From Klebsiella phage fENko-Kae01: 64,000 nt of DNA. The DNA lies in the sequence record OR228459.1, one strand, 5' to 3'. The notes under the pieces are model-generated. The model was not told where the DNA came from. It saw only the letters and a list, made by a program, of their open reading frames with translations, and did not search any database. Positions 1,067 through 61,018 of this stretch are shown here, piece after piece (position 1 is the stretch's first letter; every line of letters begins with the position of its first letter). The translations under genes were made by a program, and so were the position numbers.

Positions 1067-1454
1067 AGATTTTATAAAATACATGACTAACGCAGAGGAC
1101 TTGAAAATTTCAGTACTCGATGGTATTATGTACATTAATGTAGGAAGTATACGCTCTAACAGTATTGAGATTAACAATAACTATCATACTATTACTATGT
1201 ATGATTTGGATTGGGTTAGAGAAGAAACGAAAGAATCTACTAACAGTTCTGCATCTATGCTAGTAGCAGCGTTGAAAAATGCATCCCCTCCCAAATTGGA
1301 ATTCTATATTCCAATATCACAGGAAGATGAGTTCCAACAAAGTACTGCACGATTGGGATATATTCTACCGTATTCTTTAGTACCTTATGTTGATGAACTA
1401 GTAAAACGTGTTCATGATATAGTTGATGATTTTTATATTAAAGGAAGAGGTTAA
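1047..1454 (+). CDS. hypothetical protein
   Basis: 135-aa ORF overlapping previous stop; co-directional packing. Confidence 0.55.
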   Translation: MNVEKYRDFIKYMTNAEDLKISVLDGIMYINVGSIRSNSIEINNNYHTITMYDLDWVREETKESTNSSASMLVAALKNASPPKLEFYIPISQEDEFQQSTARLGYILPYSLVPYVDELVKRVHDIVDDFYIKGRG

Positions 1455-1455
1455 T

Positions 1456-1716
1456 ATGAAAGATATAAACGGTATTGAAATTACAGTTGGATGTACTTTA
1501 ATGTTTGCTGAACGTGAACCAGACAAGTGGAATCCACGTGATATGGTTTTCCATAAAGTTTCTAAAATCGATCCTGCTTTTGATGGTCGTATTATTTTTG
1601 AAGATCAAAATCAAAATAGTATCGCCTACAAGCAAAACATCACAACTTTACGTGTTGTTTCAGAAGGGTTTGTTGAGGCGTGGAAAAGTGGTGCGTTGTT
1701 TACGAGGGAATTCTAA
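1456..1716 (+). CDS. hypothetical protein
   Basis: Start trimmed to internal ATG (MKDING...) preceded by GGAAGAGG RBS. Confidence 0.55.
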   Translation: MKDINGIEITVGCTLMFAEREPDKWNPRDMVFHKVSKIDPAFDGRIIFEDQNQNSIAYKQNITTLRVVSEGFVEAWKSGALFTREF

Positions 1717-3528: not shown

Positions 3529-3604
3529 GCGTCTATCGTATAGTGGCCTAATATCACTGGTTTCCACCCAGTAGACCGGGATTCGAATTCCCGTAGACGC
3601 TCCA
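3529..3604 (+). tRNA. tRNA-Gly (anticodon TCC)
   Basis: Acceptor GCGTCTA/TAGACGC, D stem GTAT/ATAT, anticodon stem ACTGG/CCAGT with loop TTTCCAC, T arm CGGGA-TTCGAAT-TCCCG, CCA. Confidence 0.8.
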
Positions 3605-5596: not shown

Positions 5597-5640
5597 TTGA
5601 CTTACATCCTTCACTAACGTATAATTAGTGAAGGTTTTTT
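5597..5640 (+). promoter_or_regulatory. terminator hairpin with embedded promoter (TTGACT-N17-TATAAT; -10 in hairpin loop)
   Basis: CTTCACTAA-CGTATAA-TTAGTGAAG stem-loop + T6; -10 hexamer sits in the loop. Confidence 0.55.
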
Positions 5641-6812: not shown

Positions 6813-6895
6813 GCGGGTATGGGGGAACTGGTAGACCCGACGTGCTTAAAACACGTTTCGCAAGAGTGAGGATTCGAATTCCTCTACCCGCACCA
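6813..6895 (+). tRNA. tRNA-Leu (anticodon TAA), long variable arm
   Basis: Acceptor GCGGGTA/TACCCGC, anticodon stem ACGTG/CACGT with loop CTTAAAA, 13-nt variable arm, T arm GAGGA-TTCGAAT-TCCTC, CCA. Confidence 0.8.
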
Positions 6896-18334: not shown

Positions 18335-18363
18335 TTGACGTTTAATACGTTGGCTGCTATAAT
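18335..18363 (+). promoter_or_regulatory. sigma70-type promoter TTGACG-N17-TATAAT
   Basis: Consensus spacing. Confidence 0.6.
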
Positions 18364-18393: not shown

Positions 18394-18750
18394 ATGAGAC
18401 ACCGTTCCGAATTCATTCGCAACCGTACTGAATATCTAATGAATAAAGGCATAGATGTAGATACTGCTTCCAAGCAAGCAAATCTTGATTTCCGTAGTAT
18501 GACTGAGTTGGCGGCTGAATGTGTAATGACTTGTGCTGATGAAGAACTTCCCGGTAAAGGTAATACTCGTTGTAATCGTACAGCTTGTCAAAGTGATAAG
18601 CATGTGTTATTTTATAATTTCGTTATGGGAAAGAATTATTGCGTCAATTGTGCAACTGATATTCGTTTCTGTAACAATCTTAACAAATTAGATTTATACC
18701 CTGAGTACAATAAATCTTTGGATAAACTGTTAGAGGACAATGCAAAATGA
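18394..18750 (+). CDS. Cys-rich putative zinc-binding protein
   Basis: 118 aa; CVMTCAD...CNRTAC...CVNC cysteine clusters. Confidence 0.55.
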   Translation: MRHRSEFIRNRTEYLMNKGIDVDTASKQANLDFRSMTELAAECVMTCADEELPGKGNTRCNRTACQSDKHVLFYNFVMGKNYCVNCATDIRFCNNLNKLDLYPEYNKSLDKLLEDNAK

Positions 18751-18995
18751 GTCAAGCTGAAATCACCGCAGACATTATCATCACTGAACAGCAACACATT
18801 GAAGAACTCCGTATGCACATCAAAGACCTGTACCAGCAAGTTTCTGATGGTCTAATGGAAAGTGGTAATGTAGTTACTAAGGCTATTGAAAATCTGTACA
18901 AAGAGATCGATGCATCCTTTAATAAAAAAAGTAAGTACGAACAGAACGTACTAGCACTTAAACGTCAAATCTTCAAAGAATTGGGAGTACTGTAA
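18747..18995 (+). CDS. hypothetical protein
   Basis: ATGA overlap, 82 aa. Confidence 0.5.
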   Translation: MSQAEITADIIITEQQHIEELRMHIKDLYQQVSDGLMESGNVVTKAIENLYKEIDASFNKKSKYEQNVLALKRQIFKELGVL

Positions 18996-19286
18996 ATGTT
19001 CAAGAGCTTTGCCCCTTGGGATAAAAAACCAGAAGAAAATGGTGCATACATCGTTGTGGTCTATTCTCGTGATGGTGTACCAGTGATGCGTATTGCATTT
19101 TATGATGTTGAGTCAAATACGTGGACACAGCAGCATATTGAAGAATATGGGTATTCCACTACTTCCAAACTTAACGACAACATTATTTCTTATTATAAGA
19201 AAATTGATGGTGTTTCTTTTGAGGTAATCCCTGAATCCTATAAGATCAAAATGGATGGGGTTAAACTTAACGAAGATGACGAATGA
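18996..19286 (+). CDS. hypothetical protein
   Basis: TAAATG junction, 96 aa. Confidence 0.5.
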   Translation: MFKSFAPWDKKPEENGAYIVVVYSRDGVPVMRIAFYDVESNTWTQQHIEEYGYSTTSKLNDNIISYYKKIDGVSFEVIPESYKIKMDGVKLNEDDE

Positions 19287-19786
19287 CAACAATCTACGTT
19301 AACCACAAATTGGGTGTCGTAATGACCGACACCCGTACTACAACTACAGTACAAGAAACATTTCTAGGTATCCCAATAGCAACGTATGATACATTCAATG
19401 ATGATGGTGTAAAAGCTATTAATGTACATGATCGTATCTTTGTTGAAAGTGGTTCATGTGAAGAGAGTACTAAAATTCTTCAGTACTTAGCACATGGAAC
19501 ACCGATTAAACCTGCACCAAAAAAGTATAAACTTCTAAGTAATTGTTTTCTAGTGGATAAGAATTGGCTACTCCAAATTTATATCCAGAAAGGTAAGGTA
19601 CATAAGCGTTTCCACGTTGTAAAAGAAGACTCTTGGTATTGCACTGGAAGCGGTAGCAATGCGTTGTATGAAGCATTAAAGGTTTATGACTTTAAGCCAA
19701 CGTTAGAAGAAGCTATATCGGCCTTTAAGACCGTTCATTTCAGTGATCGTTTTACAAGCAATCAGGTACTGATTTACAAAATCTGA
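19283..19786 (+). CDS. hypothetical protein
   Basis: ATGA overlap, 167 aa. Confidence 0.55.
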   Translation: MTTIYVNHKLGVVMTDTRTTTTVQETFLGIPIATYDTFNDDGVKAINVHDRIFVESGSCEESTKILQYLAHGTPIKPAPKKYKLLSNCFLVDKNWLLQIYIQKGKVHKRFHVVKEDSWYCTGSGSNALYEALKVYDFKPTLEEAISAFKTVHFSDRFTSNQVLIYKI

Positions 19787-19845
19787 TTGACACAAATTTT
19801 AAATATTAGTATTATAGATGCCAGCAACAAAGCTGGCATTTTTTT
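19787..19845 (+). promoter_or_regulatory. promoter (TTGACA-N17-TATTAT) immediately followed by GC hairpin + U7 (terminator/attenuator-like leader)
   Basis: GCCAGC-AACAAA-GCTGGC + T7 located at predicted +1..+25 of the transcript feeding the sigma-factor gene. Confidence 0.5.
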
Positions 19846-19864
19846 ATCAAATTAGGAGTTATGC

Positions 19865-20833
19865 GTGAAAAAACTAAATCTAGAATCTATCCACGATGAA
19901 GTACTAGACGAATGTTTCCACAATGAGAACAATACTGTAAAAAGTTTGCTTCAAAGTTCGGCTGATGATATTGATGATGAAAGCACCGCAGTTGTAAGCA
20001 GTGAAGCATACAATACAAAAGAACGTTTGCCAGCAGGTTTGACCAACGAAATTCTTATTGACCGCATTAACAGCGGTATTGATGTGGCTAAAAACATGGA
20101 CATGCTAGTACGTTGCAACAGTGGTTTAGTTTATGCAATTGCTCGTAAATGTACTTGTAACATTCAATTCCAAGATAAAGTACAATATGGTTTCGAAGGA
20201 TTGATACATGCAATCCGCAAATTCGATACTTCTAAAAAAACCAGCTTTAGTACTTATGCTACTACTGCAATCAGGCAGACTATGTATAACTACGGTAACG
20301 AAGAGTCTCGTATGGTAGCACTACCCAAGTATCAATCAGTTAACAACGTAACGATTCAGAACTTCATTGAGCGTTTCATTGCAAACAACGGTCGTAACCC
20401 AACGCATGAGCAGATTTCAGAAGGTACTGGTATTGACCTAACTTCAGTATCTCGTGTAATGAAATACACAAGCAATGCAATCAGTCTTGATACACCAGTT
20501 AATGAAGATGGGTCTGTAATGCTTCAGGACGTGATTAAAGGTGAAAGCGAAGACTTCCATTTAGATCCGGGTCTAATCACCGATGAGAGCATTATGAACG
20601 AACTTTTGGAAGTAATTTTTCATGACCTATCGCCAGATGATCGTGCATTAGTTGAAGCAGTACACGGCTTGAATCACGAAGATGAAAAATCTTTTTGGAC
20701 TCTAGCATCGGAAGGTTTTGTTTACACTGATAGTAAAGGGCGTCAATATTCTTCACGTACCTCTTTACATCGCTGCTACAATGATGTAGTATCACGTATT
20801 CGTCGTCATATGAATGAGCGTGGTATCAAATGA
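19865..20833 (+). CDS. sigma-70 family RNA polymerase sigma factor
   Basis: Region 2 FEGLIHAIRKFDTSKKTSFSTYATTAIRQTM matches sigma70 2.2-2.4; region 3/4-like C-terminus; GTG start after AGGAG. Confidence 0.8.
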   Translation: MKKLNLESIHDEVLDECFHNENNTVKSLLQSSADDIDDESTAVVSSEAYNTKERLPAGLTNEILIDRINSGIDVAKNMDMLVRCNSGLVYAIARKCTCNIQFQDKVQYGFEGLIHAIRKFDTSKKTSFSTYATTAIRQTMYNYGNEESRMVALPKYQSVNNVTIQNFIERFIANNGRNPTHEQISEGTGIDLTSVSRVMKYTSNAISLDTPVNEDGSVMLQDVIKGESEDFHLDPGLITDESIMNELLEVIFHDLSPDDRALVEAVHGLNHEDEKSFWTLASEGFVYTDSKGRQYSSRTSLHRCYNDVVSRIRRHMNERGIK

Positions 20834-21163: not shown

Positions 21164-21200
21164 AAAGGGTTGACTTCGGTCAGCCCTTTTGTTATTATAT
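21164..21200 (+). promoter_or_regulatory. UUCG-tetraloop hairpin terminator fused to promoter (TTGACT inside stem, 17 bp, TATTAT)
   Basis: AAAGGGTTGAC-TTCG-GTCAGCCC-TTTT-G-TTATTATAT; family of 9 copies. Confidence 0.65.
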
Positions 21201-27074: not shown

Positions 27075-27108
27075 TTGACACGATCAGGGAGTATGTTATA
27101 ATACTCCC
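27075..27108 (+). promoter_or_regulatory. promoter TTGACA-N16-TGTTATAAT with -10 in loop of GGGAGTAT/ATACTCCC hairpin
   Basis: Near-identical copy at 28381. Confidence 0.6.
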
Positions 27109-28384: not shown

Positions 28385-28414
28385 CAACATTCGGGAGTAT
28401 GTTATAATACTCCC
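28381..28414 (+). promoter_or_regulatory. promoter TTGACA-N16-TGTTATAAT with -10 in hairpin loop (copy 2)
   Basis: GGGAGTATGTTATAATACTCCC identical to the 27087 copy. Confidence 0.6.
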
Positions 28415-43236: not shown

Positions 43237-43312
43237 AATCCCCTCATAATTCTTGTAATTATATTATATTTAATTAAAAAAGGTCAGTACTGGTATTGTA
43301 CTGACCTTTTTA
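43237..43312 (-). promoter_or_regulatory. intra-array terminator + late-type promoter cassette
   Basis: Hairpin GGTCAGTAC-TGGTATT-GTACTGACC + T-run, then TTAATTAAATATAATATAATTACAAGAATTATGAGGGGATT-ATG (minus strand). Confidence 0.6.
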
Positions 43313-47597: not shown

Positions 47598-47674
47598 ACA
47601 TTCTCCTTATTTGTACAATTATATTATATTTAATTAAAAATGACAGTACTTATGTAGTACTGTCATTTTTCTTA
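47598..47674 (-). promoter_or_regulatory. intra-array terminator + promoter cassette (copy 3)
   Basis: AATGACAGTAC-TTATGTA-GTACTGTCATT hairpin + T-run; conserved promoter block. Confidence 0.6.
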
Positions 47675-58647: not shown

Positions 58648-58681
58648 TTGACACATAACGGGGATATGATACAATATCCCC
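58648..58681 (+). promoter_or_regulatory. early promoter with -10 (TACAAT) in loop of GGGGATAT/ATATCCCC hairpin
   Basis: TTGACA-N16-TACAAT; 8-bp perfect stem. Confidence 0.55.
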
Positions 58682-60957: not shown

Positions 60958-60990
60958 TTGACAACCTTTCGGGGGTAGGATATACTATCC
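60958..60990 (+). promoter_or_regulatory. early promoter with -10 (TATACT) inside GGATA/TATCC hairpin
   Basis: TTGACA-N17-TATACT. Confidence 0.55.
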
Positions 60991-61018
60991 CCATCAATTA
61001 AGCAAAGAGAGAAACAAA

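Follow-up and report, generated by a model that had tools for sequence, protein, structure and literature searches.

Overlap of a promoter and a terminator ahead of the sigma factor gene of Klebsiella phage fENko-Kae01

Upstream of the sigma factor gene of Klebsiella phage fENko-Kae01, a sigma-70-type promoter and an intrinsic terminator follow one another so closely that transcription is predicted to begin within the 5' arm of the hairpin. The locus was analysed in a 64,000-nucleotide (nt) stretch of the phage genome (sequence record OR228459.1), called here the window, to which positions refer unless stated otherwise. The reading that we favour, and to which we give a probability of about 55%, is that the terminator ends the upstream transcription unit and that the sigma promoter restarts transcription past it, an arrangement that would provide insulation and not a timing gate. 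A preliminary description of the same DNA had proposed such a gate, in which the transcript begins with the terminator hairpin and most transcripts stop there. This part of it did not stand, since the stem begins 1 nt past the -10 element and the predicted start lies within its 5' arm. The description had itself named a start mapping beyond the hairpin as one observation that would speak against it and, in sense and by prediction only, this is what is found: the start is not upstream of the hairpin.

According to the favoured reading, the locus would mark where one early transcription unit of a Munch-like jumbo phage ends and another begins, with the gene for an RpoD-like sigma factor coming after this boundary. 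The hairpin and its T7 tract (19816-19845) would stop host polymerase arriving from a four-gene unit whose promoter lies at 18335. TTGACA-N17-TATTAT (19787-19815) would act as a host sigma-70-type early promoter abutting the terminator, with its start within the 5' arm, most likely at A19823. Transcripts from this promoter would be without seven of the ten nt of that arm, leaving the terminator unable to fold, and the T-tract would be passed. They would cover the sigma gene and the open reading frame (ORF) of 109 amino acids (aa) that follows it, and would end at a terminator-promoter module at 21164. In this way, transcription from upstream would no longer govern the expression of sigma, which would depend on its own promoter, its GTG start codon and its AGGAG sequence, with no need of an antiterminator. 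The sigma product, which has domains 2, 3 and 4 and a family N-terminal extension and is without region 1.1, would presumably bind the host core enzyme and redirect it to another class of promoters.

The module and its predicted start

The promoter TTGACA-N17-TATTAT, the hairpin and the T7 tract stand where the preliminary description had placed them, and both promoter and terminator recur in all 14 versions of the module described below. By its sequence, and with a spacing conserved at 16-18 nt, the promoter reads as one of the sigma-70 type. The hairpin is an intrinsic terminator by structure, that is, a G+C-rich stem-loop directly before a U-tract: the stem has 10 bp, five of them G-C pairs, the loop has 6 nt, and the whole folds at -15.5 kcal/mol. 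The GCCAGC-AACAAA-GCTGGC hairpin previously noted is the core of this longer stem. The distance of about 8 nt given for it needs correction: that core begins 4 nt, and the full stem 1 nt, past the -10. The gap between the T-tract and the GTG codon is only 19 nt, so another promoter cannot be accommodated there. Signals of both kinds are abundant in this phage. The window contains 35 promoter matches of at least 11/12 on the plus strand and 6 on the minus strand, when composition-matched first-order Markov simulations give 2.4 +/- 1.7, which makes strong matches on the coding strand about 15-fold enriched. Terminator-like sites between 12 and 30 kb number 22, as against 7.5 +/- 3.0 in shuffles (about threefold).

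The close set used to follow the module comprises 14 distinct versions, the window's included, taken from phage Munch and from contigs of metagenomic or viral origin, with sigma factors 77-99% identical to that of the window. All 14 keep the same order: an ORF of 166-168 aa, the intergenic module, then sigma. The -35 begins with TTG in every version (TTGACA, TTGACC, TTGACG, TTGAGC, TTGCTA or TTGATA), the spacer of 16-18 nt is variable in sequence, and the -10 is TATTAT in 13 versions and TAATAT in the remaining one. Two subgroups differ by a 9-nt insertion or deletion just upstream of the -35, which is correctly spaced in both. The terminator is held just as closely in place. A gap of 2 nt separates the -10 from the core stem ATGCCAG in 13 of the 14 versions, and of 1 nt in the other; correspondingly, the full stem starts 1 nt past the -10 in 13 and immediately after it in one. 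The core stem ATGCCAG/CTGGCAT is itself found in 13/14, the exception being L024, where GTGCCAG turns the outer A-U pair into a G-U wobble. The pair at the top of the stem covaries, being C-G in five versions and U-A in nine; this was counted by hand, and a count of pairs by MAFFT column shows no two-sided change, the partner base standing in a separate column. The loop, of 6-11 nt, is free in both length and sequence, and the T-run has 5-7 residues. Further downstream, AGGAG is kept in all versions, ahead of a GTG or TTG start codon. From these alignments, promoter and terminator both appear to be under selection.

What the module does would depend on where transcription starts. Holoenzyme of the Escherichia coli type most often starts 7 bp past the -10 and favours a purine at +1, a pyrimidine at -1 and a G at +2 (PMC5730371). 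The promoters of the window agree with this published rule: among its 46 strong promoters, position 6 after the -10 is C in 24 and position 7 is A in 33. At the sigma promoter CAG occupies positions 7-9, or positions 6-8 in the one relative with a gap shorter by 1 nt; within the close set, CA falls at position 8 in 13/14 and at position 7 in one, and the CCAG start context is invariant (14/14). From this matching CAG context, transcription is predicted to start at A19823, and thus within the hairpin's 5' arm. The consequences for folding are steep. RNA that reads through from upstream contains the full hairpin, at the -15.5 kcal/mol already given, and successively later starts reduce this to -12.1 (19820), -7.4 (19821), -5.0 (19822), -1.8 (19823) and -0.7 kcal/mol (19824). 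The full stem can form only if transcription starts no later than 19816, 1 nt past the -10, and the six-pair GCCAGC core only if it starts by 19820 (position 5). From 19822, 19823 and 19824 there remain four, three and two of the ten pairs, and these residual short stems lie 2-4 nt away from the U-tract. Since the predicted start lies within the 5' arm, we infer that the terminator would not fold in RNA made from the sigma promoter, which would thereby escape termination.

Overlap of terminators and promoters is a habit of this phage. A short AAGGGTTGAC-loop-GTCAGCCCTTTT hairpin followed by TGT and TATTAT or TATAAT occurs eight times on the plus strand (21165, 22470, 26042, 30485, 32236, 34654, 35500 and 61437), with a -35 TTGAC within the 5' arm of the terminator; 16 matches are found on both strands together, where 0 are expected. 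At these junctions, as is proposed for the sigma module, one short element ends a transcription unit and starts the next. Their start is placed past the 5' arm, which would keep the terminator out of the new transcripts, a habit that fits the bypass proposed for the sigma promoter and that is also seen in the terminator at 5597-5640 described below. The two designs differ in order. In the repeated junctions the terminator comes first and the -35 is part of its stem, whereas in the sigma module the whole promoter is upstream and only the start lies inside the hairpin. This promoter-first order is unique to the sigma module among some 20 terminators in the window.

An inverted repeat, AATCAG...CTGATT (19758-19788), runs from the 3' end of the upstream ORF across its stop codon and into the -35, of which it takes in the first bases. 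Its pairing is kept in some relatives through a pair of synonymous changes, CAA/ATT to CAG/ATC. It is seen in the subgroup in which the stop codon abuts the -35, is absent where the 9-nt insertion is present, and is inconsistent in EJP2.

Distant relatives and rival readings

Across the family, sigma is widely preceded by a nearby terminator, in surroundings that vary. In EJP2, L025 and Hallingskeid, whose sigma factors are 42-49% identical to that of the window, an orthologous promoter is found where the corresponding upstream gene has its stop codon (TTGACA-N17-TATAAT, 12/12, in EJP2 and L025) and precedes a conserved ORF of 49-50 aa (MKEYIVEYF...). Next come, in EJP2 and Hallingskeid, a terminator and then sigma. 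In these two, only about 13-15 nt lie between the stop codon of the small ORF and the terminator stem, a spacing that might hint at translation-coupled control of read-through. GAP32, CBB and fHe-Yen9-04 have a helix-turn-helix gene, a small ORF, a terminator with a GCCAG/CTGGC core, about 45 nt and then sigma, with no good sigma-70 promoter in those 45 nt. In 121Q there is neither promoter nor terminator before sigma. The small ORF of GAP32 and EJP2 was absent from the window by tblastn, and the clade to which the window belongs is without it. Judging from these layouts, sigma probably depends on read-through in several lineages, and this looks like the main route in phages of the EJP2 and Hallingskeid types. 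Read-through was the other route to sigma allowed by the preliminary description, and that part of its idea therefore survives for the family; in fENko-Kae01 it may be a minor route.

Several of these observations weigh against insulation by bypass. The order promoter, 49-aa ORF, terminator, sigma in EJP2 and Hallingskeid, and the terminator directly before sigma with no good sigma-70 promoter between them in GAP32, CBB and fHe-Yen9-04, suggest that read-through may be tolerated, perhaps even required, in the family, and that some attenuation may be ancestral. The choice of A19823 comes from E. coli rules and from the phage's promoter statistics, and no mapped start or 3' end was found for this phage or its relatives. 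Were transcription to begin at C19821 (position 6) or G19820 (position 5), five to six pairs would be left (-7.4 and -12.1 kcal/mol), which could cause some termination, and the U7 tract, which would lie at +17 to +23, could still cost some transcripts even without a hairpin. As to the promoters that sigma would serve, the TGAAACG motif proposed for CBB has 8 matches in the window for 8.1 expected. This CBB-type "divergent" motif is thus not enriched and was rejected as the target of the window's sigma.

Under the timing gate, transcripts of the sigma promoter would carry a working terminator and mostly stop after about 25 nt, and an antiterminator or rare read-through would be needed, so that sigma would be delayed. 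Phage lambda offers a parallel: its constitutive promoter pR' is followed closely by the intrinsic terminator tR', ahead of a key regulatory block. There the distance to tR' is about 190 nt, the transcript contains the terminator in full, and the Q protein, with its promoter-embedded binding site, is required. The window likewise pairs a promoter with a close terminator, but its hairpin overlaps the start site. That promoter and terminator are adjacent and both conserved is in keeping with a gate, as is the presence, in EJP2, Hallingskeid, GAP32, CBB and fHe-Yen9-04, of a terminator between sigma and the nearest upstream promoter. In addition, 42 cases of terminators within 5' untranslated regions, just past promoters, are documented in Pseudomonas phages (PMC10914365). 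What makes a gate unlikely here is geometry. The modal start is position 7, beyond the limits of 19816 for the full stem and 19820 for its core, and the phage's own promoters place CA at positions 6-7. A hairpin set at least 7 nt past the -10 is found in 0/14 versions of the module, and starts at positions 7-9 leave only two to four pairs. No antiterminator, Q-like factor or binding element was identified, the window's approximately 150 ORFs not having been searched systematically for one. We regard as equally improbable that the promoter-like sequence contributes little and that sigma is made by leaky read-through from upstream, with the terminator keeping its level low. The five other lineages with a terminator directly upstream of sigma and without a downstream sigma-70 promoter speak for this, together with the GCCAG/CTGGC core that the hairpins of GAP32, CBB and fHe-Yen9-04 share with that of the window, and with a non-ATG start codon, which suggests that low expression is wanted. 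It is difficult to reconcile with a TTG-N19/20-TATTAT conserved across 14 versions, with -35 spacing held despite the 9-nt insertion or deletion, with the orthologous 12/12 promoters of EJP2 and L025, and with the marked excess of promoters of this kind over expectation on the coding strand.

Slightly less probable still is a valve that depends on the start nucleotide. In the E. coli genes pyrC and pyrD, the start nucleotide decides whether a 5' hairpin forms, and in pyrC this hairpin hides the ribosome-binding site. In the window, too, possible alternative starts would fall within the 5' arm of a hairpin; here the hairpin would be a terminator. RNAs begun at C19821 or C19822 would keep four to five pairs and be partly terminated or structured, those begun at A19823 or G19824 would escape, and nucleotide pools or a start-shifting factor would tune the amount of sigma. 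The stepwise fall of the stem energy over the plausible starts (-7.4, -5.0, -1.8, -0.7 kcal/mol) would suit such a valve, CCAG is invariant, and choice of start site dependent on nucleoside triphosphates is established (PMC5730371). Nevertheless, the usual rules would class a stem of four to five pairs, 2-3 nt distant from the U-tract, as a poor terminator, and the role of CCAG in the terminator stem explains its invariance equally well. Very improbable, finally, is a minus-strand promoter, ATGCCA-N17-TATAAT, that would use the conserved GTATTATA and ATGCCA to direct antisense RNA into the upstream gene. The match, at 19839-19811, scores 10/12 and has all six bases of TATAAT. With the hairpin loop of 6-11 nt lying within its spacer, the spacing would run from about 17 to 22 nt across the versions, the genes of the region are all on the plus strand, and L012 alters the hexamer to TATATT; the candidate was rejected on the ground that its spacing is not conserved.

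The literature search revealed no described precedent for an overlap in which the promoter precedes the terminator, the nearest being the Pseudomonas phage terminators mentioned above. Ordinary parts are here arranged in an unusual way. As long as its start is a predicted one, the overlap is a modest curiosity, and it bears on no long-standing open question. What it illustrates is layout: a 350-kb phage fits stop and restart signals into about 60 bp, the restart being predicted to begin inside the stop signal. If the start is confirmed, the module would be a compact and portable insulator design, and a natural test of the length of 5' arm that a terminator needs.

The sigma factor

The 322-aa product is a phage-encoded sigma-70-family factor, as the preliminary description had recognized; Pfam regions 2 and 3, full-length profiles, hhalign and Foldseek concur. 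The region 2 motif FSTYATTAIRQTM is confirmed in the product, which matches Pfam Sigma70_r2 (PF04542) over aa 81-143 (E=3.1e-14, 52.9 bits for a cutoff of 24) and Sigma70_r3 (PF04539) over aa 164-227 (E=1.5e-9, 38.3 bits for a cutoff of 25.3). The sole superfamily-level or equivalog model to pass its cutoff is the sigma-70 superfamily model TIGR02937 (56.6 for 42.9). RpoD and RpoS equivalog scores are all far below theirs (for example 106.6 for 354). With neither region 1.1 nor a full-length RpoD equivalog score, the product does not qualify as a group 1 (primary) sigma factor.

Region 4 had been called unmistakable together with region 2, which overstates the case. The profile search that the preliminary description had proposed returns regions 2 and 3 and, for region 4, no Pfam match (PF04545 or PF08281) at E<=1; precomputed PF04545 matches are likewise found in 0/61 close homologues. 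Taken literally, this is the other outcome that the description had named as counting against it, and it would deny region 4 altogether. The full-length profiles and the structure model overturn that conclusion: region 4 is present, judging by them, in a divergent form. The NCBIfam model RpoD_Cterm (E=1.5e-30) aligns to aa 298 and the full-length RpoS model to aa 320, and hhalign pairs the family profile with residues 372-576 of E. coli sigma-70 with a probability of 99.5. An AlphaFold model of the whole protein has a predicted local distance difference test score (pLDDT) of 74.6, and its top Foldseek matches are sigma-S and sigma-A in initiation complexes. The last 87 aa, modelled alone, reach a pLDDT of 85.5 and a predicted template modelling (TM) score of 0.74; the top 50 Foldseek matches of this model in the PDB are all sigma region-4 domains, with TM scores of 0.5-0.72 and root-mean-square deviations mostly of 1.6-3.2 A, the best of them at 0.6-0.72 and 1.7-2.2 A.

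Domains 2, 3 and 4 of bacterial group 1 and 2 sigma factors (E. coli sigma-70 and sigma-S, Thermus and Mycobacterium SigA) align with those of the phage protein, which shares with them the core-binding pattern of region 2.2 and FSTYAT..IRQ. Unlike them, it has neither region 1.1 nor the non-conserved region, and its N-terminus is extended by 60 aa that contain the family-specific motif LNLxxIxDEVLDECF. It further departs from E. coli sigma-70 in having T/A for the W433/W434 pair (aa 136-142, 20270-20290), of which a single homologue keeps W433, in the replacement of T440 and R441, and in a predicted beta-hairpin of about aa 287-295 (20720-20760) inserted between the two helices of the helix-turn-helix of region 4.2. 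On the evidence of sequence and model, the loss of W433/W434 and the beta-hairpin suggest unusual promoter melting or -35 recognition. From the missing region 1.1, the N-terminal motif and the changes at W433/W434 and T440/R441 we infer a promoter specificity different from that of host sigma-70, and it is plausible that the factor redirects host polymerase to other classes of promoters.

The gene is orthologous to those of the RpoD-like sigma factors of group 2 jumbo myophages, that is, Munch CPT_Munch_487, CBB_513, GAP32_490, 121Q gp167 and Sharanji RpoD, described in PMC5259590, PMC7824862 and PMC11895373. Full-length identity is 99% to the Munch protein and 36-46% to the others. All share the early-region position and regions 2, 3 and 4, and as a member of this family, which is conserved across the Rak2/121Q/GAP32/CBB group, the window's sigma shows no difference. 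No biochemical characterisation of any of these factors was found in the accessible literature. Since such a sigma factor is a known and already annotated hallmark of this group of jumbo phages, the gene itself adds little.

Genome context

Over 1.9 kb around the sigma locus, nucleotide identity is 97% with the Salmonella jumbo myophages 7t3, SE_PL, PHA46 and Munch, whose genomes are about 340-350 kb each. The Munch record (MK268344) gives CPT_Munch_487 as "RNA polymerase sigma factor", labels the hairpin before it "terminator" and the AGGAG a ribosome-binding site. The sigma gene and the terminator are thus annotated already, and the gene is most likely an ordinary early gene in an unusually compact layout. 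The surroundings consist of a series of small genes, all on the plus strand, with many sigma-70-like promoters and hairpin terminators, a make-up typical of an early region. The features of the locus, with the corresponding small-ORF regions of four relatives, are collected below.

Table. Features of the sigma locus (window positions) and small-ORF regions of relatives (positions in the relatives' own sequences)
Feature	Position	Strand	Remarks
Upstream-unit promoter TTGACG-N17-TATAAT	18335..18363	+	11/12
Upstream unit, four small ORFs	18394-19786	+	driven by promoter 18335
Last gene of upstream unit, 167 aa	19283..19786	+	phrog_24804; syntenic with sigma in every relative examined
Stop codon TGA of upstream ORF	19784-19786	+	
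-35 TTGACA	19787-19792	+	first base directly follows the TGA stop
Promoter spacer	17 nt between TTGACA and TATTAT	+	promoter 11/12 consensus match
-10 TATTAT	19810-19815	+	
Terminator hairpin, 5' arm AGATGCCAGC	19816-19825	+	
Terminator hairpin, loop AACAAA	19826-19831	+	
Terminator hairpin, 3' arm GCTGGCATTT	19832-19841	+	
T7 tract of terminator	19839-19845	+	
Predicted start window CCAG	19821..19824	+	best +1 A19823 (C -1, G +2, 8 nt after -10)
Shine-Dalgarno AGGAG	19854-19858	+	6 nt 5' of GTG
Sigma-70-family factor gene, 322 aa	19865..20833	+	GTG start 19865, stop 20831-20833
Sigma domain 2, aa 78-148	20096..20308	+	includes FSTYATTAIRQ; Pfam r2 aa 81-143
Sigma domain 3, aa 155-227	20327..20545	+	Pfam r3 aa 164-227
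Sigma domain 4, aa 241-319, four helices	20585..20821	+	structure model; without Pfam r4 match
Downstream ORF, 109 aa	20830..21159	+	hydrophobic N-terminus; start overlaps sigma stop (ATGA)
Fused terminator-promoter module AAAGGGTTGACTTCGGTCAGCCCTTT + TGT + TATTAT	21164..21198	+	ends sigma unit, starts next; terminator annotated in Munch
Small-ORF region, L005 (EJP2)	1227-1490		
Small-ORF region, L002 (Hallingskeid)	1232-1485		
Small-ORF region, L025	1270-1500		
Small-ORF region, L004 (GAP32)	1248-1491		

The 109-aa ORF is probably co-transcribed with sigma. It has counterparts, at about 30% identity, in L008 and L015 only, is absent from the remaining relatives and has no PHROG family match; its poor conservation and the lack of a PHROG family ruled it out as a conserved partner or an anti-sigma factor. 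At the other end of the sigma gene, an out-of-frame ATG 2 nt past AGGAG opens a 12-codon ORF (19861-19899) that overlaps the GTG codon. Apart from the window, only Munch, L008 and L015 have this short ORF, which by this distribution is probably non-functional.

Other promoters of the window have features of their own. At 5597-5640, a TTGACT-N17-TATAAT has its -10 in the loop of a terminator (CCTTCACTA / TAGTGAAGG followed by T6), which puts the predicted start in the 3' arm. Four perfect-consensus promoters (about 27085-27108, 28391-28414, 58658-58681 and 60968-60992) have the -10 within a G+C-rich inverted repeat, for example GGGAGTATGTTATAATACTCCC, without a T-run; these repeats could be operators or processing sites. 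The motif CCCAYNGGGTGC is found six times for 0.32 expected (53371+, 55691-, 59647+, 59715-, 61497+ and 63384-), each copy some 30-40 nt past the -10 of a strong promoter. In most of these promoters AAAAGTAC or AAAATGC lies shortly before the -35, and several are arranged divergently.

A search of the whole window with Rfam at gathering thresholds gave four tRNAs only and no match near 19.8 kb. Five phage tRNA genes (Pro, Lys, Glu, Gly and Leu) are located at 183-414, 3529-3604 and 6813-6895. On the minus strand between 38546 and 52038 lie ten ORFs of 373-399 aa and one of 267 aa, possibly paralogues, which are separated by bidirectional terminators of the form A5-hairpin-T5 with GTAC in their stems (43277-43311 and 47636-47670).

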